DNA of 63,608 bases, filler included, from Hausera hauseri (Eukaryota), in assembly GCA_046269625.1 (NCBI GenBank). It is 13 parts of 13 records of this genome, joined end to end, with 100 filler letters (N's around TTAATTAATTAA, not from the genome) between each part and the next. Parts side by side here need not be neighbours in the genome. Positions count along the whole stretch, not along the records: positions 22,702 to 27,298 come from JBJURY010512350.1; 12 more parts are not named here. One strand, written 5' to 3'. Positions 3,659-45,512 of this stretch are shown in pieces. The notes under the pieces are model-generated. The model saw only the letters and a program-made list of their open reading frames with translations. It had not been told where the DNA came from and searched no databases. Position numbers and translations under genes: made by a program. Numbering within the stretch: position 1 is the first letter of the stretch; every line of letters begins with the position of its first letter.

Positions 3659-3990
3659 AGATGCATCGAACTCAAACCAAATATGAAGACATGTTCATCC
3701 TCAAAGTTTTCATATTCCAGTTTGTGAACTTCTACTCAACTCCAGTCTACATCGCCTTCTTCAAAGGCAGGTGAGAGCTGCTCCCGCAAATCACAACGGG
3801 CCTCTAAGCTTCTTCCATGTAATATTTTTATCAAGTATTTGAGTGGTTCTGCTTCTAATCATAAAGTCGTTTGATTTTCTCCAAAGACTTGGCTTGTGTT
3901 TGTCCTAACAAGCTTGTTTGTCGGTGTCTCTTCAGTTTCGTTGGTTACCCTGGGATGTACAACACTCTGTTTGGAATTCGCAATGAAGAT
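3659..3990 (+). CDS. ANO7: two spliced exons (3659-3770, 3936-3990) of an anoctamin, ANO7-like; gene fragment
   Basis: Canonical cag|..|gtgag and ttcag|..|gtgagt boundaries. The spliced peptide (E)[55 protein letters not shown] closely matches vertebrate anoctamin-7 as I recall it. C-ending codons differ from neighbouring genes. Confidence 0.85.
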
Positions 3991-4009
3991 GTGAGTTTGT
4001 CTTTAATGT

Positions 4010-5347
4010 TTGAAAGAAAAACAAATATTTCCTTAATGAATCTCGAGCCATTGCTTTTTTTGACGCTTTAGCGGTATTTGGATTCTCTTTATACCGACTA
4101 CATTCGTAATATTCTGCTTGATGAGTCTTCCAATCTTGAAGGCACATCCAACAAAAATTATATTTACACTTGAAACACATCATATGATTACAGCCACCAT
4201 TTTTTTTAATACACACCCCACATTCCGGGCAATCTTTCGTATAGGCTGTGATGTAATTAGCTGTTTCCCAATCGTCCCGGCATTTTAAAAGCCATTGTTT
4301 GATAGTTTTACAACTGGTCGGTGCATGATATGCCAAACCACATTTGAAACAATATTCCGCTGAACATTTACTGCACTTAACACGCTTAGCTTTCGGATTT
4401 TCGGCGTAGACAATTATATTGTACTCATTGTTTATACAGAATCTCAGTTGAAGAAGACTCTCAACTATAATATTAAACTGGTATTTCTGAAACATATCTC
4501 GAAATTTTGAGCCAGTCAAAATATCCAAAATCATATCCTCCATCACCGCCAATTTACACTGATTACCCATACACTCAATCAGATCCTTATTCTCGAAATT
4601 CTGATCCAAATGAATCGAAAAGTAATTGAACCAACAAACATTACAGTACTGATGTCCACAAACCATTCCAACCAGAGGATTGTTAACGTCAGTGTTTAAA
4701 TAACAAATTTCACAAACGGTATTCTGGGAGTTGCACACGCCTGCCGGTAATGGATTGGGTTTTGTCGATTGAATTACAGATTCTACACACGGATAATACG
4801 ATTTCCATAAAAATTCTGATTTGGACTTTTGAGCGTCAATTATTAATTTAAGGCAATTTGGTAAAATTCTCGATCTGATAAAAACAGTGAATGTATTACT
4901 TTCATAATCTTTCACAACATCCTCAATAGACCAATTGTATGATATTAAAATTAATTTTGAAACCACAAGACTCATATTGATATTTTTTGATAATTCTTCA
5001 ACAGCCTTGTTCAATATGCTTTCAACGTCTTCCAATTGTAATTCTTCATATTTCAGATATTCAGGATCAATTTTAGGATCATTGGACTTTGAGAAATCAT
5101 CTTCACCATACAAATACTCCGTGTCTGAGAAAAGTTCTGTTTTGTAAAGCCCATCGAGATCTTGCATTAATGACGAAACAGCAGGCCTACTGTCGTTTGA
5201 TTGTTTATAAATATCCCTTAAAATGTTGATAGCAATTCTTGAGAGCGCTTGCAATTCTTTTTGTGACCAATTCGATACGAATTTGTAAAATAATTTCGTA
5301 TAATCCAAATTGTCTACTTTATCATCTGTAGACTTTTCTGACACCAT
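4010..5347 (-). pseudogene. ARIH2: Ariadne-2-like RBR E3 ubiquitin ligase, intronless, truncated at the start of the Ariadne domain
   Basis: RING1 (CEIC..CGHQYCNVCW..C), IBR, and RING2 ETANYITAYTKDCPECGVCIKKNGGCNHMMCFKCKYNFCWMCL..YYECSRYKENP. Homology ends at ARDSLRKYLFFFQ; the ORF tail is antisense ANO7 sequence. Confidence 0.9.
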
Positions 5348-5508
5348 TGTTAAATTTGTTGAAAGTGAGTAGATAATTCCAAATAGACCAAAAAAGATAA
5401 TATATAATTCAAATTAGACCAAACAAAGTCTTTATTGTTTTAAAATTAAAATTTCCAATAATTCATTAACAATAAACGATATGCATAATCATAGAAACAA
5501 ACAGATAA

Positions 5509-13748: not shown

Positions 13749-15310
13749 ATGCACCTGTGAAATGGCAGTGATCCTTGACTTTCCAATTTTCCTTGGTGAA
13801 GGACTTGTCACACAAGTAGCATGATATTGCCTTGTGCCATTCTTGTTCTTGTATCCAAGACATGCTCATGTCGTACTTATGCTGCTGCAACATATCGCCA
13901 AGTCTATGAGCCATGTCTTCAAGTCTCTTCATGAAATGTGCTGCTGCACCTAGACCCCTGAATAGATATGGTTCACTGTCCAATCCTTTGGCATACATAC
14001 AATACTATGATATTTCGTGATATTGGTATGCCGTTGTACTGCTATGTTGACGACTGGAACTGAATGTATGAATTGTCCTAAGAATGGCTTCAAAGTCGCA
14101 ATAGATGACAATTGGGATCTGGATCTTCTCGAATTCTTTAAATTCGATATAGTCCTCTTTGGGAAATTCTGACCTTACACAATAATTGTTGTTACAGTAT
14201 TTCTTATGCTCTTTAAGGTTGTCCACGGCTTCTCCACCACTGAAATAGGACAAGCATCGTTTGCATATTTCGATTCCGTGTTCATGATTTTTTATTTGTG
14301 ATCTGACTAGACGCTCAAAATTCTTTATCCAAACATAATATTTCTTATCACCGTTGTCTAGTAGGAGCAGATTCCTATGATCTTCCAATGCACCATCACA
14401 TATTTGTAATGGGTAGAATTTGTCCTCCTGATTGAATCCAAAGATATTGACGGACATGTTGTTGATGCGGCTGAACTTCTTGATTTTATCTATGGATGCA
14501 GGGAATGTGATTGACTGAAAGTCATAGTTGTGTTGGAGATCATTATATAGTGAAACACGGTAAGCATGATTTACATACATTACGAGTTTTGATAGAATGG
14601 CATATATGAAGCACATGTTGTCATTGTTTTGAACATTGACGCATGCTTTCTTATTAACAATCCATTCCGGAAGCTGTATATATGAACTGCCTCGCATGGG
14701 GGAGTATCTGTGTACATATATAAGCAGTCTCTTGATTGTTGCCAGAGCCCATCCACTCTTCTTATCCTGGCTCTCATCGGCTTCACGGATCAGCGTCGTA
14801 TGCTCTTCATGCAGTTATTCAGCTATAATTGTGTTTTTTAATATGGGCCTATTTTTGGTCTTAAAGGTCTTATTTGATTCTTCAGCATCGACATTGACGT
14901 ATGTGGCCTCAAGTTTCATATTAACCTTAAGGGCCTTGAGCTCAGTTATATTGTCCTGGAGGATCCTCTCTGTTTCTTCCTTTGCATATTCCAAAAACTC
15001 CTTGATGGTTCTTTGCCCAGCTGCATCAATGACATATTTGCTGACTTTTTTTAATGCAGCAGCATCTACTGGCCTCTGTCTTTGGCTTTTTGATGGAGCC
15101 GCTACACCGGCATCTGAGGGGCCTGATGGGCGTTTTACTTTTGCGGGCTGTACTGCGGACTGTACTATGGACTGCATTGCGGATTGTACTGTAAATTGCA
15201 TTGAGGACTGTACTGCGGACTGTGCAACTGGCCTATGCTCATTAAATATGATCTTCTTGGATTTTGGTGCTAAATCAGTCAGATGATTCTTATGATATTC
15301 ATAGAACTGT
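13749..15310 (-). pseudogene. Polinton/adintovirus-type protein-primed PolB, N-terminal part (subfamily A)
   Basis: SGWALATIKRL..KYSPMRGSSYIQLPEWIVNKKACVNVQNNDNMCFIYAIL; CKRC..H..YC zinc finger; IVIYCDFE exonuclease motif I; CYLC..KVKDHCHFTG endonuclease-VII-like insert. Confidence 0.9.
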
Positions 15311-18432: not shown

Positions 18433-18620
18433 CACGACAAGTATTTCCTCACAACCAAGCCTACTTGATAGATGCATGTCATGATGCTACGAACAAACCG
18501 TATGGATATCTATTTATTAACTTTACACAACAGTGTCCCGATGACATGCGTGTGCAAACAGACATTTTCAATGTGAAAGGTGTATGTGTATATAAACAAA
18601 TTCGAAAATCGACGACATGA
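18433..18620 (+). CDS. Polinton A32/FtsK-like packaging ATPase, C-terminal end
   Basis: RQVFPHNQAYLIDACHDATNKPYGYLFINFTQQCPDDMRVQTDIF matches the Polinton ATPase tail AT..PYGYL.ID....R.RT.IF. Confidence 0.8.
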
Positions 18621-18814
18621 TTATGATAAAAAACGAAATGAAGAATTTCCGAAAAAGAATTGTTAAACGTAAACAATCTACTACTAAGCAGATGTCTGGA
18701 GGCAAGAAACGCGTATCAAAACGAACCACCGCTACAGTCAAGCGATTAATCAATTCTGTGCTTCGTCGAACAACAACGAGACACAAATTACCGTCTCAAT
18801 GGCAACGGTTATAA
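18617..18814 (+). CDS. small Arg/Lys/Thr-rich protein, candidate virion core DNA-condensing protein
   Basis: 65 aa, very basic. Contains MSGG|K, which fits the adenain-type cleavage consensus (M/L/I)xGG. ATG overlaps the ATPase stop (ATGA). Confidence 0.5.
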   Translation: MIMIKNEMKNFRKRIVKRKQSTTKQMSGGKKRVSKRTTATVKRLINSVLRRTTTRHKLPSQWQRL

Positions 18815-18854
18815 ACAACTACGACTCATCAGCATCAATACGTCCACAAAAAGC

Positions 18855-19190
18855 ATGAGATTCAAACGTAGTCAGCCGAACTTTATTGCTTTGCTCAAGG
18901 CATTTATGAGACATAAGCGAAACATGTTGCTATCATTCCCACAGTTTGTAGTAGACGATTTAATGGAAATTTTATACAATATCGTTGTGGGCCACGTTGA
19001 CATCGGTAGTGGAAAGCGAAATTTACTAAAGTATCGAAAACGACTCATTGGCCTTCCCAACGACCGTAGTAAACGACTGAAACGAGAAGTCATATACCAG
19101 AAAGACGGTGGATTCCTTGGTGCAATTCTACCGATTGTCACGTCATTACTGGGTGGACTCATTGGTTCTGCAGCACAGTATAAACAATGA
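18855..19190 (+). CDS. Polinton small core protein with C-terminal amphipathic helix (adenovirus protein VI-like)
   Basis: LMEILYNIVVGHV..QKDGGFLGAILPIVTSLLGGLIG has the Q.GGFL..L.P motif typical of Polinton/adintovirus small proteins. Confidence 0.7.
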   Translation: MRFKRSQPNFIALLKAFMRHKRNMLLSFPQFVVDDLMEILYNIVVGHVDIGSGKRNLLKYRKRLIGLPNDRSKRLKREVIYQKDGGFLGAILPIVTSLLGGLIGSAAQYKQ

Positions 19191-19289
19191 CGGTAAGTAT
19201 GTTATTATTCGGCGATATTGGTGCAAGGTTTTCATCATTTCGCCCCAGTTTACCGAATTTTTCATTTTCGTTTGGTTCAAATTGTTGTA

Positions 19290-20337
19290 ATGCAAGCAAA
19301 ACCGGTATCATCGACGACAACGATGGGTGACGTGTGGTTCGACCCGCATCATCCCGTCGGTTATATTGGCGTCGACAAACTGGCAAAGACCCCGATTTTG
19401 GATTGGGAAAGAGTTAGCATACAGCCTAAACAAACCGATAAAAAGGCAGTCTCCAACTCGTGCATACCATGCTGCCGGTGTAAATAACGTATGGCAAATG
19501 GATCTGATAGAAATGATTTTGTACGCCAGTATCAACGATGGGTATCGGTACGTGTTGACATGCGTTGATGTGTTTAGTCGTTTTGCACGTGCAATTGGTA
19601 TGAAATTTAAATCCGGTAAAGAGATTGCCGACACTGTTTAGACACTGATGCAACAATAACAACAAGAACAACAACCGAAGCATTTACAAACGGATTCGGG
19701 TAAGGAATTCTACAACGCCCAAGTTGCAGCGGTCTTCAAGCGGTTCGATGTAAACCACTACTCGGTGTTTTCACAATACAAGGCTGCACTCGTTGAACGA
19801 TTTAATCGAACATTTCGCGGTCGGCTAAACAAATTCTTCACAGAAAATGGCAAAAAACGCTGGGTAAATGTACTGCCGGATATTATTTATGCACACAATC
19901 ATTCGACACATCCTGGCATCAATGGATTACGGCCGGTTGACGTAATCGATAATTTGGACATGTGGCTTTATCAAAACCGACGGCTACGACCAACTAAACA
20001 CCAAAAATAAAAAATCGGTAATTATGTACGTATTTTAAAAATAAGTACAACGCTATTCATTAAAAATTTCAATAAGAACTGGAGCAATGAGGTTTTCCGC
20101 ATTTCGGCAATCAACACAAAACAAACACATGTAACGTACATTTTAGAGAATTAAAACGGCGAGGAAATACGCGGTAAATTCTATAAACAGGAACTGCAGG
20201 TACTGCCCGAGAAACCCGATGTATATAGTATTCAGGAAATTATACGTTCACGCGGCAAAGTTTCGAATAAACAATATCTCATCAAGTGGCACGGATACAC
20301 TACACCAAGTTGGATTTTTGCATCGCAGATTGAGTGA
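19290..20337 (+). pseudogene. Polinton retroviral-like (c-)integrase with C-terminal chromo-like domain
   Basis: WFDPHHPVGYIG; WQMDLIEM..YRYVLTCVDVFSRFA; HLQTDSGKEFYN; VERFNRT; NWSNEVF; IRGKFYKQELQ; YLIKWHGY. Several stops and a frameshift. Confidence 0.92.
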
Positions 20338-21395
20338 TGAGCATTTACTTGGTACTTGATAGTAGCAGATCATTATCACAACATGACGAAAATGACAACA
20401 ATACCGTTAGGCAGTTTACCGTGCATTTGGACCAACCGGTCTATTTACACCATAGATCCTGGGAAGTGGCTTTGACGGAATTCACATTTACATTTTCACC
20501 AATGACAATGGCAGAACAGTGGTATTTACTTTACCCTACAAGAAACATACTCTATTTCAAGTCGTTTGTGGACAATCCGACACAATAACCGACATATTCT
20601 TTGCAAATTCGCGAGAAAATTTCTCGGTTTATGCTTATTTTTCAAACAACTGTATGAAACTAATGCATCGAAGTCCCATTGAAATGCAGTTTAATTCTAT
20701 AGATGATGCTCAGACATGGGGTTTTTAATCAGTCAATGTACGCTCAAAACGTCTACAGCTAGGTGGAAATGTTATAATTGGTGAAAAATTGGACCTTTTA
20801 TCCAATGCGGAATCCGATATTATAGTAACGTGGACTAAGTCAGAATCAGTCTTCCGCTCATTATACCACACAATTTATTATTGGAAACAGAACTGGAATT
20901 GTCTGAGTACGTCAAGAAAACGGCTACATTAGCCGTAAAAACATGTGAAATAAACGCAGATGGTCATATTTCGATTATACTACATGACAAGGTTACGTAT
21001 TTTGCCTTTGATGAATTATTGGCTCGGAATCTGGGTTTTTCACAACGCGAGTTCTATCAAAACATTGTTGTACGATCTATTGTTGCCAAATACAAACCAC
21101 AACTCTATGGAGCATTTCACCGAATGAACATTTTAACGGACTTAACCGAATCCGTACTTGTTGGTGGAGAACGCAAACAACTGCTGGCTTCTATCGAACT
21201 GAATTCTAACACGTACAAAGCATCATCGGGTGAAACTGTTCGAGCTATTATGTTCAGACCCATGTACTTATCATTGTCTCACAATATTGTGCACAGTTTT
21301 CCGTGTATATGCTTGATGAATTTTGGAAACCCATTAAATATCTGTTTGGGTCAACGACGCACTTGACGTTACATTTTCGACGTCGTAAACGTTGA
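20337..21395 (+). pseudogene. Polinton minor capsid (penton, PX-like) copy 1
   Basis: MSIYLVLDSSRS..NTVRQFTVHLDQPVYL..WEVALTEF; ILTDLTESVLVGGERKQLL; C-terminal TLHFRRR. Confidence 0.8.
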
Positions 21396-21410
21396 TAATA
21401 AACAAACTGC

Positions 21411-21440
21411 GTCATCACCATCATCATCATCATCATCATC
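21411..21440. repeat. (CAT)n microsatellite in the spacer between the two minor capsid genes
   Basis: TCATCACCATCATCATCATCATCATCATC. Confidence 0.9.
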
Positions 21441-21446
21441 GAGATC

Positions 21447-22449
21447 ATGAGTATTTACATGATGTTGCCGAGCAAGAGTTGTCCGACGACTCGTCCGAAC
21501 AATTCCGCCAGTGAATACTTTCCATGTCCACCGGTGGCATTGAAAAGTAGTATAAAATAATGTACAGTAAGACTGTTCGTGAAACCAAAACACATTCTTG
21601 TCCTCTGACACTTATGAACAATAAAATAACAGTTGAAGAATCGGCCATTTGCACGACCGAAACAGATTCCGGTTCACACGGCAAAATCGGTGTTTATATT
21701 TTAGAGGAAAACTTAGTTTTTATGGCAAATTTTGAATTTACTGTTACTTTTCCATCCTCTGAGATGACGCAGAAATTTGGATTCAAAAATACAGAGTACA
21801 AAGATAATCATATTAAAAGTGAAAATATAGTTGCGCCAAGATTAAATCCCATATATTACAAGACAACGGTGAAATTTACCTATACAACATGAAGGGTGTC
21901 AACGTCATACGTATCGATTGGAGACAATGTCTATTGTGAATCTGTAGCACAACTCTGTCAAAACTTTTCAAATCAAAAGTACAAGGCTATATTTAAAGTT
22001 TTCGAGTAAGATGCGAATGGCTACGATAAATTTGAACTGGCTAAGGATATTGTCGACATTTCATTGGACAGAGCTTTGGCCATGTTATTGGGTTTTGAAA
22101 AACAGCGGTTTGCAGCGGCGGCGGTACATGTTGCAACACTCAAACCCAAATTGAAAACGGACTAAGTCAAATGTACATTTATGTGAATGTCACCGAACCG
22201 ATTTTGGTCGGTGGAGTACGTGTACCGCTACTCCGTGCAATTTATTTGGAAAGCAGCAAGTATACTACTGGCGACAATGTCACTGTCAAGCTCGATAATC
22301 CAGTGTACCTATCTGTGGCATCTATATCTATAAACAATGTTGAAGTGAATATCCGATGTGACGCGGGCTACCTTACTGAATTTACGTACGATATCACAAC
22401 CAGTCTAACTCTTCATTTCCGTCGAATCCAACAACAACAACATGATTGA
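21447..22449 (+). pseudogene. Polinton minor capsid (penton, PX-like) copy 2
   Basis: MSIYMMLPSKSCP; LAMLLGF; MYIYVNVTEPILVGGVRVPLLRAI..PVYLSV..INNVEVNIR..SLTLHFRR. Confidence 0.82.
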
Positions 22450-22601
22450 TACTGAAATCGTTTCCATTAACAGTAAACGGACGATAACATTGACATTCAA
22501 TTCAACATTGTGGCGTCAGACAATGAATACCTGGATTTGAACGATACGCTACTCTATGTAAAAGTCATTGTTAAAAAAGATGCATCAACGGTTCTCGCTG
22601 C
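22442..22601 (+). pseudogene. Polinton major capsid (double jelly-roll, PY) N-terminus, cut by contig end
   Basis: NEYLDLNDTLLYVKVIVKKD fits the MCP pattern Y.DL..T.L.VK..I.K.D and lies directly after the minor capsid. Confidence 0.65.
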
Positions 22602-22701: not shown

Positions 22702-25700
22702 AATGTCTACTGATTTATTATTGATTTCCTTTGTTATATTTTCCACCTCGGATTTTATTTTTAGTAGTATAATGATTGTTATTTCTGTGAGTATTGTGAC
22801 GAGGATAGTTCGTCGCATGGTAATGTTGTAACTTAATCCACTTATGAGTTCCGATACTTGGATTATTAAAGAATACATGTGTCATTTGGAAACGCAATAG
22901 CATTTGTTTTCCTTTAATTCTGAATGTGCGACACAGATGGATCTGTATGATTCAAACAACGTTGCTGCTTCCTTTTCGTGTCCTATGGGTTTGTTTGTAT
23001 ATGCTATTATTAAACATTTCTTCTCAGGGCTATAATGGATAGATTCGTTAGTTATTCTTTAATTCGAATCTTGTATTTTTTGGTAGTTTCAAATAATCTC
23101 GAAATATGGTGCGTGATTTTCGTTCACTATAGTAAGTTGGAGTTAGATATAATTTCAATTGAGGTGTTGAGGTTATTTGTGTCAATAAACCTGGTATACA
23201 CATCGGTAATATACATCAGAATTTATATTTACATAAAGTTGTGCCCATCATAATCGTGAAAATATTGATGGTTATTAGTAGAGCTCTCTCGTGGTTCATG
23301 GAAATATATCTGTTAGTTTTGCTGCATAAGGTCTTTTCTGTCCATATTGAACCTATCTGATTCCTTAGGCATTCCGATTGTGGAAATAATTGTCTAATAT
23401 GATCAATTGTTGATTGTCTCGTAATTTCTTGGGGCTTTGCTGTTGACTGTGCCAATACATTGGTCATACATAATGCCAATGTACATGAAAATAGTACTGC
23501 TTGACTAAATTTCGGTTTCATGCCTTGATGGTTTATCGAAACCATTTCGCTACATGCATGATTATCTGATTCAGTGGGGTTTTTATTCGTAATGGATTCT
23601 TCTTTTGGCGTGGAATTTCATATAAGTTGACTTAGTTTATTAATATTTTTATCTACTTTTACCCAAGATTCCTTGTCTATGACGGGACCTATAAATTTAT
23701 TTCCCTTTTTCTTTAAGTGTCTGCTTATGTCCGTAATTTGCTTATGTATTTTTGTTAGATACTGCAGATAAGGCATTGTAGTCACAGGGATTTCTTCCGC
23801 TGGTAAGTCTATTAAATAATCTGTTAAATAATCTCCTTCATTCTGTAACAAGTCAACATGTGTCAATCCTAAATAAGCAGTGATTCTGCTGGTCCATCGG
23901 GCGCAGATTACTCCATTGGGGTTTGCTCCATATATTTTAGCAAGTGTATCCAATCTTGCATCATATAATTGTACTGATCGGTGGTAGATTTCTATGGCAT
24001 TTATTTGGGTTATTCCAATTATTTCGTCAGTTACTTTCATTCCTTTAGGTTGATCTCGTTTTCTATTGAAATTATAAAAGAGAACTTGGATCATATATTG
24101 TCGGATTCTTGCGTGTTGAATTCGGGTGCTAGGACAAAGTTATTAATGTAGAAGTGATCCACCATTCGTTGTAATAAGTTCTGTTTTTCGTATTCGTTAA
24201 GGTAATAGAAGTCGTTCAGGTATTGGCTTTTGATCCAATTATTTGTTCTTCTTGGTATATTCTTATGATTCAGGCCTAGTTCCCATATGACTTAGCATAT
24301 CTATCTCTCGATTTCTGGAGTTGGTTAGGATATTGTGTCTTGGCACCTACACAGAAGCTTTGTAAATAGGATTTTTCTATCAGTAATCCTTGTTGACGGC
24401 AGTTGCATACTCTGTGATTTGTTTGCACAACATATTTTAATTGGTTTGCTGGAGTCTTCTTCCGTGATCATTTTTCTCCGGATTAAAATATCTGAATAGT
24501 TATCGGCACATCTCTTCATCATACCATAGTAATGAAAGTCAAAGCGTAACACGGGATTATAAGATCGGTATTTTTCCATATCAAATAAATAATTTAGTAT
24601 AGCTTGTTTCTCTTTTAAGATTTCGAGGTTCCCTTCTCTTATACAATGGATAAACTGCCTTTGCCATTTCCTTTTGATGGTTTGCTCGCTTTCTAATTTG
24701 CTGACATTATGAAATATCCTAGGGTCATGTTTCGATATTTTATGCGTTTGGATCGGGGTTCTATTCAATGGTAATGGATAACTTTATTGGTTTTACCGGA
24801 AGGTTGATTGTAACCTGTATTGTAATCGTTAATTATTGTTTGCATTATTCGATTATAACGAGTGCATCTCGAATAGCCTTGGAACTCTAACTTAGTGTTA
24901 TTGAAGGCCATCAAACATGAGTGAATTTGTACGTACTGTTGAATGGTTTGTTTATACATTGTTACATAATGTAACAATCGGGTTGTCCAAATTTTATTTC
25001 TATATTCTTCTTTATCATAACCGCGTCTTACAGCCCAATATAGTAATTTTCCTATCGTATTATTTCCATATCCACAATCTATATATTGCTTCAGGGGATT
25101 GGCCTCTTTTGTACATTTCTTTTTCCATTGGTAAGTATGGAGCGTTGCAATTTGCGTTTGTTCATGTCTTATACTCTTTGGTTTCATCCATTCCCTGTCA
25201 AGATGTATAATTCCTAATGCTAGTTTATCTTTTAATTATTCATATAAAGTATTTTGACTCCGTGTCGTAATTCTTCTAGTATTTTCAGCTTTGATTTTAG
25301 CAATATTTTGAAATATTCGGTTTTCTCTTCAGGGTCGTTTTCAACATTTTGAATCTTCCGCGTCAAAAGTCCGTTAATTTCGTGATCAATGCCACAATCC
25401 TCCACTAGATAGTTGAGTATTTCTATGTCTTGAGTTGAGATTTCCGAATATTTAGGCTTATGTAAGACTATATTAAGCAGTTGAAAAACAGATGTATTCC
25501 ATGTGGTAAATGATGAAAAAAATTATGCATATAAATTGAGAGGGTTGGTTTTCAAATATTGTTGGGCCCCTAAGGCTATAATTTTAAAAGCATAAGCATC
25601 GCCTTGTGCGAAATATTGTTTTTCGACGTTATAAACAATTGTTTTTAAATAGTTGTAGTCTGGAGACTGTCGTTTACCTGGAGTTCTATTAATTTCCCAT

Positions 25701-27298
25701 AGGAATATGCGTAATCAGGTTAGCTTATGGCTCATTTCAACGTCTGATTTCGTTGATACTTCTCTAGTTGGTTCTATTTCAATGCTTTTAGTTTTCTGAT
25801 TTTGTAGATATTGTTGGCGAAGGGTATGATTTCATTTCGGTTTCGTTGTGGGTGTTGATCTTTTAGATTAGTAATTTCACATTCTATGTCCAAATCTTGA
25901 CTCAGTGACTTGTTTAACATTCGTAATAAATGCGTCATTTCATGTACTTCGATTAATCGGTCGACATTATTCTTCTTGTAAAGTTTGAATCTTTTTATTA
26001 CTGATGCTATATATTTGTATGACGAGCTGCCCCAGGTGTTTCCTTTCGCTGTCTCACTGTTTCCTATCGCATTGCATGATTTTGATAACAAGAATTTATC
26101 TTCTGCTGGCATTTCCTTGTAGGTTTTGCCGAATTCCAGCAGTATTGTATCAGTGACTTTTTAAATGTATTGTTCGCAGAAATGATATATTTATCTATTG
26201 CTATTCCATTTGTACTTCTCTATCTTCCATCCAGGGTATATCGTCTAATTCAACACTTGGCCATATACGACTCTTAACAGTTTCTTTTGTGGGAACAGTC
26301 GATGATTCCTCTGCAATTGTTGTATATGAGAGTCTTTTGACCATGGGTTCTCGGTCGTTTCTACTTCGGGTATCATGTAGTTTTGAATAATCTTTGGGGC
26401 TAATATGGTAGGTATTGTACTTAAAAATTCTTCCCTACTGGCTCGTTTTTTCTTTTCCCATTGCTGTGAATCGAATTAATTCGGTTAGTTGTTCAACAGT
26501 GTATATTGCTAATACGTATGATAGAAATTTTACATACTTCGAATAGCCTTGTTCACTTGAACTGACTGTTTGGGCAGTGCAATTTCCGATTAGACAATAT
26601 ATTACCAGGGTAGACAGAAGTATTGGGTTTGGTCTACCATAGTTTCCTTGGTTTTCCTCATAAATAGGAGATGGTGACTGTTTGGTTACCTTTTGATAAT
26701 ATTTTACTACTCGGCAATATTTATAAAATGTTACTACTATTAAATCGACTATAGTGCTGCTAGCTAAGCTTATTAGGAACATTAGCAACGGAAATGATAT
26801 ATAATCCACAAGTGGTAGGGTAGGTATTTTGGAGGCTATTCCTTATTGGCTGTTTCCACGTTTGACATTAGTTGCTTTCCTCTTATTACTTCTCTCCGTA
26901 TTTTATAATGTTTCTTGATTAGTACTGCAGTGTAGCTAGCTAGTGTGAAAAGAAATGATATTAGTAACATTAGTGATATTATGTCCCTTATTTGATTGTA
27001 CACATACGCTTCTTTGTTACATGTTCCAGCTTTAACAATAGGTATTAAGCTGCTTCCAATCATAAATCCACTGGTTGTTGGTAATATATCTCGCCCAGTG
27101 GAATTAAATTGTTTATATCGATTGACCTTCTTGTTGAAAAATATTATCGCACCTATTATAAGACTAACTAGAAGTGTCAATATTACTGCAGAAAGAGTGT
27201 ACTCTAGTATGGATGTTGAAGAGAATATTGGTTTATTTGCTCGTATTGTAATGTTGGTAGACGTTTCTGCGTCAGCTTTCTTAACTATAAGTGATGGC
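22702..27298 (-). other. decayed co-oriented orphan polyprotein region with repeated signal-peptide/TM segments; probably retroelement cargo
   Basis: Back-to-back minus-strand ORF pieces across 4.6 kb with an A-rich coding strand and no introns. Hydrophobic segments end in LIPIVKA|, LIGNCTA|Q and MTNVLA|Q. FN3-like VSELISGLSYNITM near 22800-22860. Confidence 0.5.
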
Positions 27299-29994: not shown

Positions 29995-30997
29995 TCATTT
30001 ATTCCCCGCAATGGCATTTTTCAATTTGACTCCTCTGACCGTTCGGAATTTTTCATCCAATTTTCCTTGTTTTTTCTCTTTTCGTCGTTCTCTCTGAGCA
30101 TCTTTCACTTCTTGTTTACGATTTTTCTTTTCATCGAGTGTCTCATTTTTTGATCTGCCGACCTTTTGTGTCGGTTTCGTCGTCAATTCCTGCTCAGCTG
30201 TCTCGTCATTTTGTCCGCTGTCAGCTGAACTTTCCATCTCCTTTTTTAATTTCAATTCTTTCTTATAATTTTTCTTCATTCGTATCAAATTCGGTCGAAT
30301 ATTTTTAAACTGTTGAGTCATGCCGGTCAATGGGGCGAATGGGAGATGTTCAACGAAATTCGGATCACGAACTAATTGACGGAAATGTTCCAGGAAAGCT
30401 TTGTCGTCGATCGCTGACAAATGTCGAGGAATGTGGAGACCGAGAAACAGTTCCTCTGCATCTTTATTAATAATTCCTTAACAATTCGAAATGGCATTGC
30501 GCAGATTTGTATAAAATTCGACATTTGTATGATGGCAAATATCCAAATCGACAACGAATTCGAAAAATTTTTGTAACGAAAGAGTTTTGACGCCTTTCTT
30601 ACGGAAGAAATTGTTGACGTTGTAGCAATCATATCGGAGGAAATCAATGGCGCGTGGATGTTCGTGCTCGACACTTTGGGAAACGTCGATCATCCACACT
30701 TTGTCATTGAAATAAAGGAGATTGTATTCACTCAAATCGGCATGAATAAGACGGCATTCCTGAAATAAAATTCGAACATAAGAAACTACTTGCACATACA
30801 AATTCGTCCATTCCTCGACCGTCTCCAATTCGGTGTCTGCCAAACGAGGAGCGGCGTTCCCATCGCTACCAACGAGAGTCATCAACAGCACCATGCACTT
30901 CAATTTCAGAGGTTTCGGACAAGGAATTGCTCCATCGGTTTGATGAATACGCAACAGATTTCGGAATTCTTTCTCCGCCCATGTTTTGACTTTATTT
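29995..30997 (-). pseudogene. RIOK1: RIO1 atypical kinase, intronless, 5' truncated, one in-frame stop (30478-30480)
   Basis: KVKTWAEKEFRNLLR; LIHADLSEYNLLY; IDVSQSVEHEHP; basic tail KQEVKDAQRERRKEK. ORFs 30478 and 29995 share a frame. Confidence 0.92.
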
Positions 30998-31722
30998 GTG
31001 CTGTGCCTAATGAATACAGTTTGTTGTGACTGTGGTGCAGTGGTTTAGTTTCAGGTTGTGCCTTCAGACTGGCTGCTTCACATCATTAAAAAACATTTTT
31101 CTCCGTTAAAGTTTCCCCAAAATGGCCTTGGTTTCACATTTGAAAGTGCAGCAAGCACTTATCTTATTTTGAGTTCGTTTGAATATTTGGATATGAAAGT
31201 TAATGATGCACAGAGAATGTATGTGTAAAATACAAACAAATATACTAAGGGGTGAAATAAATAAATTATAGTTTAATAGTGACATTTAAAGTCACTCATA
31301 CAAAGAGGAAAAGACCCCGTATATGGGGTAATATAATGAGGAAATTAGGCACAAACCAAAGGGGTGGAATAAACGAAGAGAATGAGGACGTTGAAACGTT
31401 AGAAGAAATAGAAGAAAAGTGGCGGCTGTTGATTACACTGGTAAGAAAGACTGAATTAGAGTAGATTAAACCAAAGTTCAGCAGCAGGATAAGGAAATCA
31501 GAGTGATGAAGGCTCATGAGGACCCTTGCTGTTAGGATGAGAGGTGTCACCTTAAAGGCTGAAGGTATAAAAACACTTAACAAATATAGTAATTTGGTAG
31601 TAATTTCTATACTCTAGCTCAGNNNNNNNNNNNNNNNNNNNNNNNNNNNNNNNNNNNNNNNNNNNNTTAATTAATTAANNNNNNNNNNNNNNNNNNNNNN
31701 NNNNNNNNNNNNNNNNNNNNNN

Positions 31723-32095
31723 CCTCGGCCTTGTGGTAAGGGGCTTTGTCCTCTCGGAAGAATCCATCGTTGTTTGGGAAAACAGACGCCAACAACGAAT
31801 GTATCTGGTCCACAATGATATTCATGTAGTTCACAGCTTTCATTGCGCCGCCTACGATAACTACAGGGCCTAGGGCTGACCAGGTGAAGGTCCTCCACAG
31901 CATAACTGGGCGGCTGAGTTCTATCCGCCGTGCATTGCTCAGCACCAGGCAGCTCTTCAACTGGTAACAGAAGAATTCTGACCCTGCCATCGACATCGTG
32001 TAAGAGAAGTCGAGTTTCGTCTGACCAGGCAACACGTTTCCACTGTTCAGTGGTCCAATGGTGATACGTAGCCACTGCAAGCACGATGACGTGAC
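31723..32095 (-). mobile_element. Tc1-like transposase fragment (frameshifted)
   Basis: HWTTEQWKRVAWSDETRLLLHDVDGRVRI; VMLWRTFTWSALGPVV; FREDKAPYHKA (degenerate FQ.DNAP.H). Confidence 0.88.
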
Positions 32096-32099
32096 GTCA

Positions 32100-35000
32100 G
32101 CAACGGAACCTTCTTGGATCTTCGGCAGCAGAGTCCCGTATCTAATATTGTCTACTAAACTGCGTGTTTCGAAACATTTCTACTTTGTGTGGCTTCTTGT
32201 GGTTGATTCGTACAGATTCTTCTCTGTCCTTAGGCTTCGTTACTTGCTTAATTTCATCTGTATCTTGCTGCTTCTGTGTGTCTTCCTTTTTTCTACAATT
32301 AGTCATTTGTTTTAGCTGTTCAATTGTTACAAGTTTTTCTGCGTATTGATTCTCAATTTCCTTAGACTGCTTCTGTAACTCTTTTGTATACTCCTCTTTT
32401 ACCTGTATTCTCTCTTGCATTTCTTTCATATTAGTTACTGCTTGGCGTCTGAACTCTAATAATTCTTGCATTAACTTTTTCGTGTCTTCTACTTCTCTGT
32501 CTTTCTGCTGGACGATACTATTGATTTCTTTAATCTTTGCTTCTATTGCTACTTCTGCCTCTCTTTGTTTCTCTCTTATATCTTGCGTCTGTTTGTCTTT
32601 CATTATTCCATTCTCTGAATTTTTCTTTGCTAACAATTTTGTAACTGTTTTCTGATATTCTTCGTCTTCTGACGATATCTCTGGACTTCTTGTTCTGGTT
32701 GTGTTTATTCTACGGCTTCGCATGTGCATTTCTATAGTCTTAATCTGTTTTCTTCACCCTATGTGTTTCCCTTCAGTACCTTCAGGTATTTACGATTCTT
32801 TCTGGTTATCTTCCTTCACTTTCTTTGTTCACTTCTGTCTTAACGTAGCTTTCCTTGCTATTTTCGGTTTTGGTTCTTGGTCAGCCGAGGTGTTTGAGTC
32901 TCTGAGTCTTTTCAATCTTTTCACCATTTCTTCCATATCTGATGACTCTGTGTCAGCATCTTCTGCTTCACAACTTTCCTGATTTTCTTCTTTTTGTGAA
33001 CCTGGGTCATTTTCTTCTGCCTGCTGCTATAACTGCCGTTGTTCTCTATACTGTAACCTTTTCTTTCCTTCTATCAAATGAAGATCACTATCGTTCGATG
33101 AGCTACTTGTCGTTTCTTCTTCTTTTCAACTGTTGTTTCCGAGCTTCTTCAAATCTTCTTCTAGCTGCTGCTCTAGTATTCTGATACGGAGCTTCAATAT
33201 CAGTTTTTGTCTGTTGGTTTTCCATGTTGGACTCACTCTCTGCTCTGAACTCTGTTTTTCGTGTGCACTTCGGTAAAACTAGTGGTGGTATGACTAATCC
33301 GTATCTGGAGTCACTCTCATCATTGCCTGAATATTCTGCTCGACTTGTCTCGTTTGACGCTTCAGTCTCCCTGTTCTTTGGTGGTACGACATATCTATTG
33401 TTTCTTCTCAGCTGATCTGTTGTAACTTTCGCTTCCTGACCTGTAAGTTTGTTGGTAATTATATATGATATGAGACCTCTTTTTTCTGTGATGGTGTACC
33501 CTGGAATCCATTTGTTTTGCATTTTTGAACTCCTATGATGTTGTCTGTAACACACTTTATCTCTGATTTCAAACTTTTGATAGACTGCTTTGTTATCGCT
33601 TCGGTCTTTTCTTTTCTGGTAGGACTTTCGAACATTCGCTCACTTTAACCGTTATTTCAAATAATTTCTGCAGTAAATATTTATGGAAATCGCCTCCCTG
33701 ATATCGGAATCTAGGTTGCAATAACATATCCACCGGGAGTGTGGGTTCTCTGCCAAAGATCATCTCATACGGTGAGAATTTTCTGCACCCATTTTCCATC
33801 ATAAGTATCATCAAAGCGGCCTGATTCAGATACAAATCCCACTAAGCTACTTGATCGCTTGCGTATTTTGTTATAATGTCATATATCACCTTGTTTTGTC
33901 GTTCATTTACACCGTTGGCACCTGGGTTATAGAATCAAGTCGCTATATGTTTAATATTTAGCTCCTTCAACGTGTCTTTCATTGCTTTGTTTACAAACTC
34001 TGTGCCGTTATCTGTGATGATTTCTAAGGGGAATCCAAAAATAGGTATAAACTTTTCCAATAAGACATCTATGATATTCTCTGCTGCCTTATTCGATAAT
34101 TGGTGTAATTCTGGCCATCAACCGTATATATCGACTATATGTAGGATATAGGCAGTTCCTGATGCAGTTAACGGATGTGGTCCAGATAAATCAAGACTCA
34201 CTTTCTCGAATGGAAAATGTGCTTGTGTTGGTTCCTGCATGGGGTGTCTTAATATTTCCATATTTCGTAGACGACATGCTTGGCAGTTTTTAACATATTC
34301 AGCGACAGTTTTCTACATGTTTGACCAGTAGTACTTCCTATTTATAATTGCAAACGTGCGATCTCTACCGAGGTGTCCTAATTTATCATGGTACTGTTCC
34401 AACAACTTGTTTATCATATAACCTGGTACGCATAACTGAAACCTCCCTTCACCATCCAGTTTATATAACACGTTATTATCCAGCATATAATTTTTCCATT
34501 TTGCTAGGTTCTCTTCTTTCTTAGTTTGCAAATCGCTCATGATTTGTCGAAGTTCACTATCTTTCTCCTGCTCATCTTTCATAATTATACCTTCTATTTA
34601 CTTGGCTCAGACTCCATGTTACTGTGTGTCTCATACTGCTGTGGATCAGTGGTATTGATGACAGAAATCTGTAAGGTATGGTCATCAATGTTTGGTGTTC
34701 CATCCTTATTTTCTGGCTCTATTTCTATCTGAACCTTGTCTGGCATTTGTGATAACAGATCTGCGACTGTATTCTCGGGATCGGTTATATATTCGATCTG
34801 CATTTTGTATCCTTGCAAATTCAAAACCCATGGTTCAATGCGTTTATTTTGGACATCTTATCTCATCATTGCTTTTAATGGCATGTGGTTGGTTATAATT
34901 TTGAATTCACTATTATGTAAATAGAAATTGAGCTTCTGTAAGGTGAAATGAATTGCATAAGCTTCCTTTTCAGTCACTGACCTTTTCTTTTGGGGTTTCT

Positions 35001-36005
35001 TGAGCCTAAGAGATAAAAAGTATATGGGCTTCGCTTTTACTGTTAACTTTACTTTTTCCATTTCTTGTCCCTCTTCCTGAATTAGAACGGCGCCTATGGC
35101 ATCCGTATATAAAATGTATGGTTTATTTGGGTTCGGATACGCTAGCATCGGTACCACTGATAGGCTGTCTTTCAAGTAATTGATGGCTTTCTGGCAAGTA
35201 TAATCCCAATGAAAACGAGCAAATTTCTTTGTTAGAGCGACTATTGGTTCCACCATCGCCGAGAAATTTGGGATGAATCGTCTTTAATATTCGCATATTC
35301 CCAAAAATCCACGAACTTCTCTTGTGTTTTTCAGTGCACCCATTGATTTGATTGCCTGAACCTTTTCACTGTCTGCCTTAACCACTTTTTTCGTTATTAT
35401 GAACACTAGATACTTCGTTTCCGCATTTGCTGAGTTTTAAGCGAACTTTGTCTCAGCCTGTCGGACACTGTTTCGATATGCTGCAGGTGGTCTTTCATAT
35501 CACCTTTCGTGAATATCAGAATATCGTCTATACGAGAGCAAATGTTTGTAGTGCTTCAAGTACTCGGTTCATTAATGACATGTATGTTGCTGGGGATCCT
35601 TTTAGTCCAAATGGCATTACATTCCAAGTTTACAATCCCGAGTGTGTACAGAATGCGCTCTTTTCTTTGGCCACTGATGTCATCGGGATGCACCAAAATC
35701 CTGATCGGGCATCTAATGTAGTGAAGTACATTGATCCACCTAGCATACCCAAAATGTCATCAATTAATGATAAAGGAAAACTGACATTTGTCGTTATTGA
35801 ATTAAGCGATCGATAGTCAACACAAAATCTATGCGTGCCATCCTTCTTCTTGACGATTACCACTGGGAATGACCATTCAGAACGAGTTCGTCCGATGATG
35901 CCTGCTTGCAACATTTCCTCTATTGCTCTTTCAACAATGTCTCTGTTTCCTAACGGTGTTCTATAAGGTCTTAGACTTATAGGTGGGTGTTCTCCATATC
36001 GGACA
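32100..36005 (-). mobile_element. Ty3/Gypsy LTR retrotransposon pol remnant (RT-RNaseH-integrase) with a charged 3' extension
   Basis: RPYRTP..WSFPVVIVKKKDGTHRFCVDYRSLN; IDDILIF; LYTDA..EKEAYAI..ITNHMPL; HDKLGHLG..YYW zinc finger; ITDNGTEF; SPYEMIFGREP. Order RT-RH-IN is Gypsy. Confidence 0.93.
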
Positions 36006-40650: not shown

Positions 40651-42830
40651 CACGCGGAGTAAAGAGTTCGTCCAAAATGATGTCTCCTTCAATATCCGTA
40701 ATGGTTAATTCTACGAGGGTTGTCTCTTTGTTACGTAATATGGTTAGAAGGAAAGCAGAATTTGTTGCCAGTATGGCTATCTGGTCCTTTGATTTAAGCG
40801 GAAATCTGGAGAAGGATATTCCGGCTGTGAGCTGATCACGATTAGGTAAATTTGATGGATATATCGGCTTTTCATATTTGATCTGAGGGAGGGTTTCTCT
40901 TCGCGTGACTTCGATGTATATTATCGGAGATGGGCTTCCATAAGTTCGTAAAATGATTGTCACATTTCGATAACACTTCTTATCAAAACGAATCGTAGTG
41001 TAAGCTGTGACATCTAAAGTGTCAATGAAATCATTTAAGTGTGCTCGACTTTTTATTTGAAGATTGCCTTTTGCTGTAGATACAAAGACTGACGTGGTTT
41101 GACTGGAGATGTCAATCAAATCTGAGAGTTTTGTAGAAGTGTTAGGCAGTTTCATTATCAATCCGGATCTTTGATGGAGAAGATGGCCTTTTAAGTTATT
41201 GGGTATGAGATTCGCCTTACCGTAGTAGACATAATCTTTGTTATCTGTTTGATTCAAGTTGCTAATAATGTTATAATAAAAAGATTTGGTTCTGTCCACA
41301 AGTTCGGATCCTTGATGATTTAGAGATGGGAATATAAATAATGGTATTCTTTAATTTAAAGGTTTTGTGGATCGCAAAAAATTTAGTGACTTTATTCTGT
41401 ATCTTTGTACAGTAACACAGTTATGTCTGTTGGTTGACAACCTTGTCGTTTGCTTGTTTGATTTTTATTAAGGAGACTTAATGGGCAGTCTTGCCATTCT
41501 GGGTTAGTCAGCTTTTTAGCCCATGGCTTTTGGGTTGACGGGCAATTTAGCCGTTTAGGAGTATGTGGAGTTTTATCTTTGGGCGCACTTATTTCCCCTG
41601 TTAACATATTTTGGGATTCTTCTTTTAAGAGTCTTAACTGGTTTATTATTTTTCTTATTTTGCGTCGTCGTTGTCTTGTTTTTGAATAATAGATTGTTAA
41701 AGGTAAAAATATTATTAATAGTATTAAAATAACACAGTATATTGATTAGGGGTTTCTCCTTGGATTGGTATGATAGTTGTTTTCATAACTTTCTTTGTGA
41801 CAGTCATATGTGATTTTAACGTTTTTTCTTTCTTTCTAAGAACTTGTAGGATTTGTCCGTCTTCGTCTAGCTCTGTTATCACAATCTTATAATTAGTGTC
41901 GGGTTCCAGGGGAATACAGGCCGATGTTGGTTCGTCCGGAGTTAATACTCCTTCACTGACTACTTTATGACTTGAATGACACTCAAATTTTATATTCGTA
42001 GTCTTTAAATCAGATGATGTAATAACCAATGAATAGGTTGTCTGTTGAATGAATATATCTAATTCTTTAATAGCTTTCTTGGATTCCGTTAGTGATATTA
42101 TTGAACTACTAGGTTGCATTGTCGAAATGGTCCTTTTCTTTGTTAAAGTGGTAATTTTGTTTGTTAGAGATCTTACTATTATTTCTGGACCAGGTTTGAC
42201 CATTGTACGTGGTCCAATAGTATATCGTATACTCTTTATCAAAGACAATAGGACAACATATATACGGATTTTGGTGGCTCGGTTGATAATATATGCTATT
42301 AGTTCCATCAAATATCTCGTATTTATGTAACGCGTCTCGTGATTGCAACATCGGGTTCCACTGTTACACAAGGTCCATTTTTCATGACCTTGGTGTAAAA
42401 TCAAATAAGGAAATATGGTTGATTAAAGTAATGAGTAATACCGGGATATGAAAAGTATGTTCTGTAACTTTGATCACTCTTTCCAATTGCATATTGCATC
42501 CTGTACGTTTTTCCAAACGAGAGCCCACAACAAATATGTATTGAATGATTGTGGTACAGATCGCAGTTTTCTGGTGTTGCTTTTTCTACTGTAAGTAGTT
42601 TTGATATGAATATATGTATATATTCATCTTTTGTTAAATTCCGATTAGCTGTAATTTTTATACAAGGGTATTTTCCAACTTGGACGGCCTTATATTTCAC
42701 ATCGAGGGTCTGAGCTGATACGCAAGTCACTAGACTTAACATCATGAGCGTTGCTATCAGTAATAGATTAGAATTTCCATTTCTTATTCTTGAATCCGTT
42801 GGTGCAGGCTTGCATCTATTTACATGGAAT
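40651..42830 (-). pseudogene. cargo region 3' of Gypsy integrase: signal peptide, FN3-like domains, TM + basic stop-transfer, cytoplasmic tail, possible DEDDh exonuclease start
   Basis: HVNRCKP..NLLLIATLMMLSLVTCVSA|QT in one frame; CGLSFGKTYRMQY and PLEPDTNYKIVITE; VILILLIIFLPLTIYY-SKTRQRRRK; LVELTITDIEGDIILDELFTP. Confidence 0.6.
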
Positions 42831-44959
42831 TTTATTGGGTGTATTTTTGTTTCTTTTATTCTTATTCAAATAGACGTTTGTTTTATCTACTTTTTGGATC
42901 ATATACAGACATTTATATGGTCTATATAATTTCGGCATCTTGCCTTTCATGCTCAGACGTGTGTATAACAAAACTTTGTCTCCAGGCTTAAAATTGTGTG
43001 ATTTAGCTTTTTCATCGTAACGTTTTTTTATATTCCTTTTGACATATTTTTGTATGGCGTGAAGCTAGATTCCATACATAACCAAGTTTTTCTTCCAATA
43101 ACTCTTTATACTCCATGTCTTTCAGGTGGGAGACGGGCATTTTAAAATCTATATCAACTGGCATGTGAGTATCCCTAAGATACATTAGGTAAAATGGAGT
43201 TTTTTTCATCGCAGGGTGAATTGTGTTTCTGATTGCAAATAAGCATAGTTTGATATATTCGTCCCAATCATCCTGTCGTTCATTGACCATTGTTGCCAAC
43301 ATATTGGTTAAAATTCCATTAAATCTTTCTACTGTTCCGTTGGTCTGCGGATGATGTGGAGTGGTTTTCAGTTGTAGTATTTGAAATATTTTTGAAATCT
43401 CTGCCATTACTTCTCCTGTGAAGTTTGGGGCTTGATCCGTTAATAATTTAGTAGGTGCTCCGTAATTAAACACAATTTCTTCGACAAACGCCTGGGCGAT
43501 TGTCTGAGCCTTTTGATCCGGTATTGGGACCACAACTGGCCATCTGGAGAATAGGTCGACAAATACTAACATGTATTTGTTTCCATTTATTGTCATAGGT
43601 AACGGTCCTAGAATGTCCATGGCCGAGAATTCCATTGGGGCTGGTGGACATTCTATTGGTTTAAGAGGAACTTTGATCTTTGAACCAGTATTCCTTCTAG
43701 TGGCACAAATTGGGCAACTCTTACACCAATCTTGAACGTCTTTAGTCATAGTGTGCCAATAATATTTTCTTTTTAGTCTTCCTAAGGTTCTTTTTAGTGA
43801 TTGATGACCTCCCGTCATGCCATCATGATATTGTGTCAATAACAACTTTATATCTTCTTAAGGAACAACTACAACTAGTTTTCCTTTATGGTTATAATAT
43901 AATACATCATCCCTTATTTTATAATTTTCAGCGAAGCTTTTTAAATTGGCGTAAAGATCTGTGTCATTCTGTATTACTTTTCCTTTCAAAAATTCTTTAA
44001 TTTGTTTAAGTTGTTCATCATTTTGCTGCCTTTGCAATAATGATTTCTCTTGTCCTGTGATGCTCCATATAGCTGCTATAACACCTGGTTTATCTATGGA
44101 TTTTCTTTCAGTTTGATCTATATCTTCTGGTATTCTAGACATATAATCCGCATTAGCATTCGCTTTTCCCATTTTATATTCAAATTGCAGATCATATGGC
44201 TGGAGCAGCATAACCCACTTCATTAGTCGACTATTCGGATTTTTGTAATTTTTCAACCACTGTAACGGTTTGTGATCAGTATAAATGATAATAGGTTTAG
44301 TTTCTGATAAGTATTGGCCATATTGTTCCAACGCGTAAACTATTGCAAGTAATTTACGTTCGATTGTTAATTAATTCTTCTCGTGTTTTCTTAACTTTCT
44401 TCCTCCGAACGATATCGGATGTTCTTATCCTTGATCATCCTTTTGTGATAGAACAACTCCTATTCCGACTTTGCTGGCATCCGTTGCTAAAAAATATGGC
44501 CTTGACATATCTGGATACGGTAATATAGGCGGAGCTAATAGATTATCTTTTAATTGTTGGCAAGCTTTTTGACATTCTTGAGTCCAAACAAGTTTAGAAT
44601 TTTCCTGTAGTAATGAATGCAATGGTGAAGCTATCTACTGATAATTTTTAACAAATTTTCGGTAATCGCCTGTGAGGCCAAGAAACTTGCGAACTCCCTT
44701 AACCGTCTTCGGGNNNNNNNNNNGACTGGAAAATCTTGAATTTTGTTTATCTTTCCTATTTGGGGACTAATGCATTCTCGGCTTACCGTATGGTCCAAAA
44801 AGTCTACTTTAGTTCCGGCAAAACAGCATTTCTTTAAACTAACTTTTATTCCTAGAAGTGCGCATCTCTGTGGCATATCCTTAAGATGTTCCTTGTGCTG
44901 TTTGTAATCAGTTAATGCGATTATTACATCATCTACATAACACATTATGTGTGGAGCAT
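42810..44959 (-). mobile_element. Ty3/Gypsy pol (RT YVDD, RNase H, integrase)
   Basis: CYVDDVII; LATDASKVGIGVVLSQ; YTDHKPL; HDGMTGGH..YYW..CKSCPIC; MDILGPLP; LTDQAPNF; HPQTNGTVERFN; SH3-like tail. 10-N internal gap at 44714-44723. Confidence 0.95.
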
Positions 44960-45059: not shown

Positions 45060-45512
45060 ACAAACGTATCTGGATATATTTAGAACATCCTTGTACAGAT
45101 CGTCAAGATGTTTAGATGTGGCGGCGACTAGAAAGCTTTTGCACGTGTACTCGGATGCTAACCAGAATTCCCCGAGCTGATTTACAGATTTCTGATATAC
45201 TGACTGATAGTCAACGACATAAACAGAAGAATTGGGAAACGGCTTTCCAAGTTCAAGTACCTCAAGAGGTGTGTCTGCTACATCTTGAGTTTCAGTGATC
45301 CGATTATTTCGAAGCGCAGCCTTATCGTGATACACTGTCCTTAGGTAACTTGATTTTGGTATCTGCGGAAACAAACCCAACGTCCATGGGCTAACAATCT
45401 CAACTGAAAGGGTACATAACCCAAATTTTGCATCATCGAATATGTTCTGAAAATCTCGAATTAAAGCTTGATTTGGTCTGTTATTGACACAAACTGTTAG
45501 TGACTTAACCTT
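45060..45512 (-). CDS. DIP2: DIP2-like AMP-binding domain fragment (third part of fusion ORF)
   Basis: VKSLTVCVNNRPNQALIRDFQNIF..TVYHDKAALRNNRI..LELGKPFP..LGEFWLAS parallels DIP2 EERPRIAL..F..TVYVD..ALR.DRV..ESGK.LP..GEIWV.S. Confidence 0.65.

Follow-up and report, generated by a model that had tools for sequence, protein, structure and literature searches.

A decayed and repeated 4.6 kb coding frame of Hausera hauseri and its possible relationship to giant envelope-type Ty3/Gypsy elements

The window analysed is a 63,608-nucleotide stretch of the Hausera hauseri assembly GCA_046269625.1, made of 13 short contigs spaced by Ns. Here, we describe one complete contig, hence a sequence without true flanks (JBJURY010512350.1, positions 22702-27298), which contains real coding debris on its minus strand. 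Crossing the stops and frameshifts of this strand by the cheapest path costs 28.5, as compared to 82.5 +/- 5.6 for 40 dinucleotide shuffles (z -9.6), whereas the plus strand is at chance (z +0.2). The same path-cost test gave similar values for the two Gypsy contigs of the window (z -10.3 and -9.1). The minus-strand path consists of 8 segments and 1,528 codons with 7 frame switches and 11 in-frame stops; it spans the entire contig and needs no intron. The coding strand has an AT skew of 0.226 and a GC skew of -0.073. These results bear out an initial annotation that had described the whole contig as one-strand, intron-free and A-skewed coding debris.

Alignment of the contigs from one sequencing run indicated that the sequence is a member of a diverged repeat family and no single gene. 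In total, 4,802 contigs of this run aligned at 80% identity or more, covering 30 of 30 bins: 232 were at 99% identity or above, 478 at 95-99%, 1,524 at 90-95% and 2,568 under 90%. The copies differ by transitions at 811 places versus transversions at 238, and a single differing place is carried by up to 67 contigs. Other copies, which the initial annotation had proposed to look for, were thus found, and the data support that the sequence is no single-copy host gene. The counts agree with the dispersed, multi-copy state of a long terminal repeat (LTR) element, as numbers of contigs and not of places in the genome. Among the run contigs listed, none spans the full sequence, and no RNA dataset is found among those listed as containing it.

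Comparison between copies also provided information about the decay of the frame. For five of the seven frame switches, an indel difference in other copies lies no more than 6 nt from the switch interval, judging from the 12 indel rows listed out of 24; none of 100,000 placements of 9 sites at random did as well. This indicates that most switches reflect decay of the present copy, and it is likely that the family once had a single continuous frame of more than 1,500 residues. Among the 40 substitution places listed out of 1,049, codon position 2 accounts for 21, position 1 for 11 and position 3 for 8; one lies in an in-frame stop. Having 32 of 40 at positions 1-2 is what is expected if the other copies agree at constrained sites, of which this bias is a modest sign.

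Hydrophobic segments were defined by a Kyte-Doolittle mean above 1.6 over 17 residues, and signal-peptide calls were made with a simple pattern rather than SignalP or DeepTMHMM. The frame contains seven hydrophobic segments versus a mean of 2.3 in shuffled sequences, 7 out of 1000 of which reach this number (Table 1). Four segments are found within the first 730 nt (27216-26573) and three within the last 800 nt (23503-22750), leaving about two thirds of the frame devoid of any membrane segment. The repeating units (hydrophobic stretch, ectodomain, anchor and basic tail) initially proposed are confined to the two ends, and the idea of serial membrane proteins along the whole contig had to be abandoned. 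Signal-peptide-like ends are found in 2 of the 7 segments, with CTA↓Q in one and VLA↓Q in the other instead of the AxA↓Q first described; strongly basic tails are likewise found in 2 of 7. The signal-peptide score was reached in none of 1000 shuffles, an unfair test since the pattern was written after seeing the sequence. Judging from these motifs, the polyprotein may be cleaved by signal peptidase into several products. The 986-residue middle region contains 1.8% cysteine and 11 N-glycosylation sequons versus 8.3 expected, and therefore shows no sign of being a lumenal glycoprotein. As for the FN3-like end, the L.SGLSYNITM motif is present and has no match in Pfam at E values up to 1.

Table 1 Features of the decayed frame and of the neighbouring Gypsy contig (window coordinates; the arrow marks a putative cleavage site)
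Feature	Position	Strand	Basis
Decayed frame, ~1,528 codons, running off the contig on either side	22702-27298	-	Path-cost analysis
Frame switches	near 26843, 26476, 25832, 25236, 24784, 24140, 23059	-	Path-cost analysis
Strong transmembrane-like segment after Ser/Thr-rich stretch, then basic tail	27124-27216	-	Kyte-Doolittle maximum 3.04
Second transmembrane-like segment, basic tail	26914-26991	-	Maximum 2.2
Third hydrophobic segment	26759-26821	-	Maximum 1.97
Signal-peptide-like segment ending in CTA↓Q, putative cleavage	26573-26626	-	Hydropathy and simple pattern
986-residue middle without hydrophobic segments	23510-26475	-	Hydropathy
Signal-peptide-like segment ending in VLA↓Q, putative cleavage	23447-23503	-	Hydropathy and simple pattern
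Transmembrane-like segment, ~55 residues past the second signal-peptide-like segment	23231-23284	-	Maximum 1.87
L.SGLSYNITM motif, FN3 assignment unsupported	22816-22848	-	Motif only
Last hydrophobic segment, directly after L.SGLSYNITM	22750-22815	-	Maximum 2.44
Separate contig, comparison: decayed Ty3/Gypsy pol (end of reverse transcriptase, RNase H, integrase), giant GAG-ENV-POL clade	43012-44959	-	
Separate contig: signal-peptide-like segment, FN3-like ectodomain and anchor behind integrase	41680-42772	-	
Parts of this cargo: signal-peptide-like VSA↓Q; FN3-like profile match; anchor	42713-42772; 41796-42086; 41680-41754	-	
Separate contig: downstream frame with the beginning of an exonuclease-like domain at its end, position as in L001	40651-41350	-	Weak

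Searches for relatives of the frame returned no accepted match. Scans with Pfam, NCBIfam and PHROGs gave sub-threshold matches only. No viral domain of Pfam was found beyond weak matches of the anchor segment, and BIR, BCL2-like, MATH, ankyrin and ubiquitin-like domains had no Pfam match at E values up to 1 in any of the 8 segments, which represent only part of an element. A word-index protein search with positions 23243-24139 (against proteins of 164-524 residues) retained 0 of 268 candidates, and phmmer with one frame across 23243-26842 (3 of the 8 segments) found no match among 1.84 billion representative sequences. Viral contigs and metagenome contigs, each searched with one segment, and the ESM atlas, searched with two, gave no match. 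Solved structures provided no accepted relative: a match to interferon-gamma was rejected because its E value of 0.0005 was obtained only by adding two weak stretches of a tandem construct, a single copy giving 0.56. Single-sequence fold models of two segments were poor, with predicted local distance difference test (pLDDT) values of 45 and 38; a fold search with the former retrieved generic helical bundles only (best Z 8.1, root mean square deviation 5.5). A Trm44-like match (PF07757) at 24765-25235 is not claimed, with an E value of 0.051 among 14 proteins scanned and 14.2 bits against a cut-off of 27. The model of this segment, for which a Rossmann fold with a DxGxG motif would be expected, was all-helical (pLDDT 38), and the segment had no match in the atlas.

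We then compared the frame with a separate contig of the window (40651-44959), which carries a decayed Gypsy pol followed by a membrane-protein cargo fused to its integrase. This cargo was missed by blastp and phmmer, and profiles were needed to detect its relatives: it was matched by an FN3-like profile of 15 domains from related elements (E 1.5e-7) and by jackhmmer (E 3.7e-15). Its FN3 label comes from the motif and weak Pfam matches (E 0.04-0.15). Evidence for the downstream exonuclease-like domain is also weak (profile E 0.004; 24% identity over 207 residues, E 0.016). This Gypsy family is much expanded, with 8,983 contigs of the same run aligning to 40651-44713.

Using the pol at 43012-44712 as a query against proteins of 994-2,835 residues, 1,111 long proteins were matched, 120 of which were examined. 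The 8 best-aligned relatives (43-47% identity, all from ENA assemblies) have a post-integrase tail of 408-1,439 residues with hydrophobic segments, a feature found in 1 of the 112 others. A maximum-likelihood tree from a quick search covered 51 rows (the top 34 and one in nine of the others, with three near-duplicates removed) and placed the neighbouring pol, on a long branch, inside a 22-row set with a Shimodaira-Hasegawa-like approximate likelihood ratio test (SH-aLRT) support of 99. At least two hydrophobic tail segments are present in 19 of the 21 relatives in this set, some counts taking in a protease-like region. The clade, as retrieved, comprises P0004-P0012 without P0009, P0124, part of P0130-P0160, L001, L057 and L080.

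Intact members of this clade revealed its organisation. P0124 is a single frame of 3,735 residues encoding, in this order, a Ty3 capsid-like region, a zinc knuckle, the fusion glycoprotein PF24664 (E 1e-91), proteases, reverse transcriptase, RNase H, integrase, a signal-peptide-like segment, an ectodomain and an anchor. Its C-terminal part used as a query led to more giants. In full members, a single frame of 2,600-4,100 residues encodes Gag, PF24664, repeated protease-like domains and pol, followed by a signal peptide, an ectodomain and an anchor. The post-integrase ectodomains are FN3-like or Cys-rich, and the coding strand is A-rich (AT skew 0.13-0.18). Separate exonuclease, RING and ubiquitin-like frames lie downstream of the main frames of L001 and L057, and three relatives of the neighbouring pol carry ankyrin repeats. 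The clade alignment retrieved nothing from viral contigs and two short contigs from genome contigs. No description of an integrase-fused unit made of signal, FN3 and anchor was found in the literature, in a search that covered sources other than subscription papers and supplements. The clade with integrase-fused membrane cargo, of which intact natural members exist, is well supported and is a firmer result than the contig described above.

Three further observations concern this clade. Residues 44-235 of P0008 form a second signal-ectodomain-anchor unit, located ahead of the protease at the place that env occupies in other members; it is weakly similar to the post-integrase unit (E 1e-5 to P0007). 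L080:1-4655, L081:1-1891 and P0158 are clade members in records labelled as bacterial metagenome-assembled genomes, likely contamination. The unit following VLA↓Q in the decayed frame appeared to resemble the Cys-rich ectodomain of P0010/P0157, a candidate rejected when a two-sequence profile test failed.

The frame at 22702-27298 resembles the cargo at 40651-42830 in composition, as the initial annotation had proposed. The neighbouring contig has an AT skew of 0.195 and a GC skew of -0.077, and the second Gypsy contig an AT skew of 0.224; the values are 0.06-0.14 for three contigs that we take to be Polinton-like and -0.085 for one host gene contig. The codon usage of the frame correlates with that of the neighbour's cargo (0.83) and pol (0.81) and less with that of host genes (0.60). 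The much-expanded Gypsy family of the neighbour is present in the same run, and the summed depth over its distal cargo (326-2,234) falls within the range observed over the frame (222-2,989). Like the metagenomic members of the clade, the frame displays internal signal-peptide-like segments, tailed type I anchors, an A-rich coding strand and a long single frame. These members contain fewer membrane units than the frame, their ectodomains can be recognised as FN3-like or Cys-rich, and no homology is detectable. We consider it somewhat probable that the contig encodes an accessory polyprotein which belongs to a giant Ty3/Gypsy element of the envelope type and which signal peptidase would cut, a reading based on copy number, composition (skew and codon usage) and architecture rather than on physical linkage to pol or LTRs.

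Several results weigh against this assignment. The contig contains no gag, env, pol (protease, reverse transcriptase, RNase H and integrase), LTR or primer site, and its frame runs off both ends. The evidence for repetition comes from one run (share 0.46), possibly the source sample, aligned without a single-copy control, and the summed depth is no copy number. The composition match is unspecific, since a Polinton-like frame likewise has 41% A at four-fold sites. Comparison with the neighbouring contig revealed no nucleotide or protein similarity, in agreement with the initial annotation, and neither blastp nor phmmer matched the frame to the clade proteins retrieved. The 15-domain FN3-like profile, two further clade profiles and jackhmmer, run with 339 of the 678 windows of clade sequence outside pol, all matched the neighbour and missed the frame, and tblastn of the frame against the clade loci found nothing. 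No member retrieved shares its layout: in addition to env, each has a single signal-ectodomain-anchor unit or two of them, and the accessory frames of L001 and L057 are soluble proteins of 440-720 residues. Cargo in this clade diverges fast, to the point that profiles were needed to find even that of the neighbour, and blank searches therefore leave room for kinship. Of the initial claim that the contig is the interior of a giant retroelement polyprotein, the repeated and polyprotein-like character stands. The analogy with the integrase-fused cargo at 40651-42830 has gained ground, since the latter element falls in a clade of GAG-ENV-POL giants with internal signal peptides, but neither sequence nor physical linkage connects the contig with this clade. 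Collectively, the data presented indicate that the frame works like the accessory cargo of giant Ty3/Gypsy elements, and that it is an orphan until linked to one.

If the contig is such a cargo, the element would be copied by a reverse transcriptase and an integrase encoded outside it. The polyprotein would be translated at the endoplasmic reticulum, where internal signal sequences would re-start insertion. Cleavage after small-x-Ala by the host signal peptidase would release a small number of short type I membrane proteins, with basic tails in the cytosol, the 986-residue middle remaining cytosolic as a large soluble part. By analogy with the planarian element Burro, the products could act on the host cell, as surface decoys, on its survival or on particle traffic, instead of serving core replication. 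More generally, we tentatively suggest, with less confidence than for the assignment itself, that giant env-carrying Ty3/Gypsy elements of this animal have a separate accessory polyprotein of more than 1,500 residues, cut by the host signal peptidase into several small surface proteins and a large cytosolic effector that matches no known family.

Invertebrate LTR elements are thought to need just gag, pol and at times env. Extra surface proteins produced via internal signal peptides would, if this suggestion is true, give such elements accessory genes like those of retroviruses, directed at the cell surface. They would bring polyprotein processing in the style of RNA viruses into a retrotransposon and extend a clade whose integrase ends in a predicted cleavable type I membrane protein. 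Burro offers a precedent for giant elements adding host-manipulating cargo. Burro (GYPSM1) is a giant planarian Ty3/Gypsy LTR element with an interior of ~25 kb. Its polyprotein of 4,873-5,140 residues includes a mononegavirus-like env, placed between gag and pol in the same frame; ankyrin and ubiquitin-like domains as well as accessory frames are also present, and D. japonica has decayed copies (PMC6431247). It is regarded as planarian in two other papers (PMC13238120, PMC13465017), one of which, citing another study, reports that one Burro1 domain protects planarian stem cells (PMC13465017). Burro shares with relatives of the neighbouring pol the env between gag and pol, and with three of them ankyrin repeats; none of its listed domains was detected in the decayed frame at E values up to 1. 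The section of the text that covers Burro describes neither an integrase-fused signal-ectodomain-anchor unit nor a multi-anchor accessory polyprotein (PMC6431247). GAG-ENV-POL errantiviruses with a gB-type env are reported from nematodes, bryozoans and flatworms (PMC13524379). Their gene order and env class are those of the neighbouring contig's clade; the decayed frame itself has no env, gag or pol. The main text of that paper has 0 occurrences of "fibronectin", "exonuclease" and "Burro" and describes neither an integrase-fused membrane protein nor a multi-anchor accessory polyprotein; its supplements may list the clade (PMC13524379). Kuafuorterviruses and Troyka, animal LTR elements, were rejected as counterparts, being mostly 5-6 kb and without large cargo (PMC11673190).

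Among alternatives to an accessory polyprotein of a Ty3/Gypsy element, the contig could be cargo that was amplified with a different large mobile element or with a DNA virus integrated in the genome; candidates are Polintons/adintoviruses, Helitrons, giant Penelope-like Terminons and large double-stranded DNA viruses. We consider this unlikely. In its favour, the contig lacks any LTR-element gene, and Terminons carry frames with transmembrane domains (PMC6431247). However, the AT skew of the frame equals that of the two Gypsy contigs and exceeds that of the three Polinton-like ones. A single one-strand frame of more than 1,500 codons filling 4.6 kb is, in general, less usual for Polinton cargo, and the searches of viral contigs (one segment) and of the 1.84 billion representatives (one frame) gave no match. 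The presence of several putative Polinton-like contigs in the window speaks for this alternative. Frames at positions 18433-22601 (+), 14005-14814, 55754-56278 and 61233-61991 look like fragments of Polinton capsid and DNA polymerase B. Of these, 18433-22601 is also plus-strand coding debris (z -4.6).

We regard as still less probable an endogenised structural or accessory polyprotein of an RNA virus (flavivirus-, nidovirus- or bunyavirus-like) that a retroelement took up and disseminated. Such viruses typically encode signal and anchor segments in series within a single A-rich frame, and the related Gypsy clade already has a mononegavirus-like fusion protein. The middle region, however, is neither Cys-rich nor sequon-rich, the only viral domains of Pfam are weak matches of the anchor segment, and a plain RNA-virus insertion would not yield thousands of diverged contigs. 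Had a retroelement done the spreading, this explanation would merge with that of a Ty3/Gypsy accessory polyprotein. There is similarly little chance that the copies derive, as pseudogenes, from a host gene family that is specific to the lineage and has expanded, or that they reflect allelic or strain diversity in a pooled sample. The lack of any homolog (a trait of orphan host genes) and the presence of the sequence in only one run, aligned without a single-copy control, might suggest this. Against it, over half of the aligned contigs are less than 90% identical, the same difference recurs in up to 67 of them, the frame is intron-free over 4.6 kb and its codon usage is nearer to the Gypsy contig than to host genes.

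The host genes on other contigs of the window (RBR ligase, RIO1 and SLC26), together with its two decayed Gypsy pol regions, point to a repeat-rich eukaryote, probably an invertebrate. Positions 31723-36005 (-) contain a second decayed Gypsy pol, which lies outside the cargo clade (long branch in the tree) and is followed by a lysine/glutamate-rich, coiled-coil-like frame; the end of this region looks like a fragment of a Tc1-type transposase. Positions 45060-48290 (-) display a stop-free frame of 1,077 residues combining a BMT5-like rRNA methyltransferase (E 1.5e-37) with an SLC26 sulfate transporter (E 1.9e-72), which may correspond to a fusion, nested genes or stop-free introns. An Ariadne-like RBR ligase at 3932-5413 (-) and a RIO1 kinase at 30478-31044 (-) are host genes with long exons.

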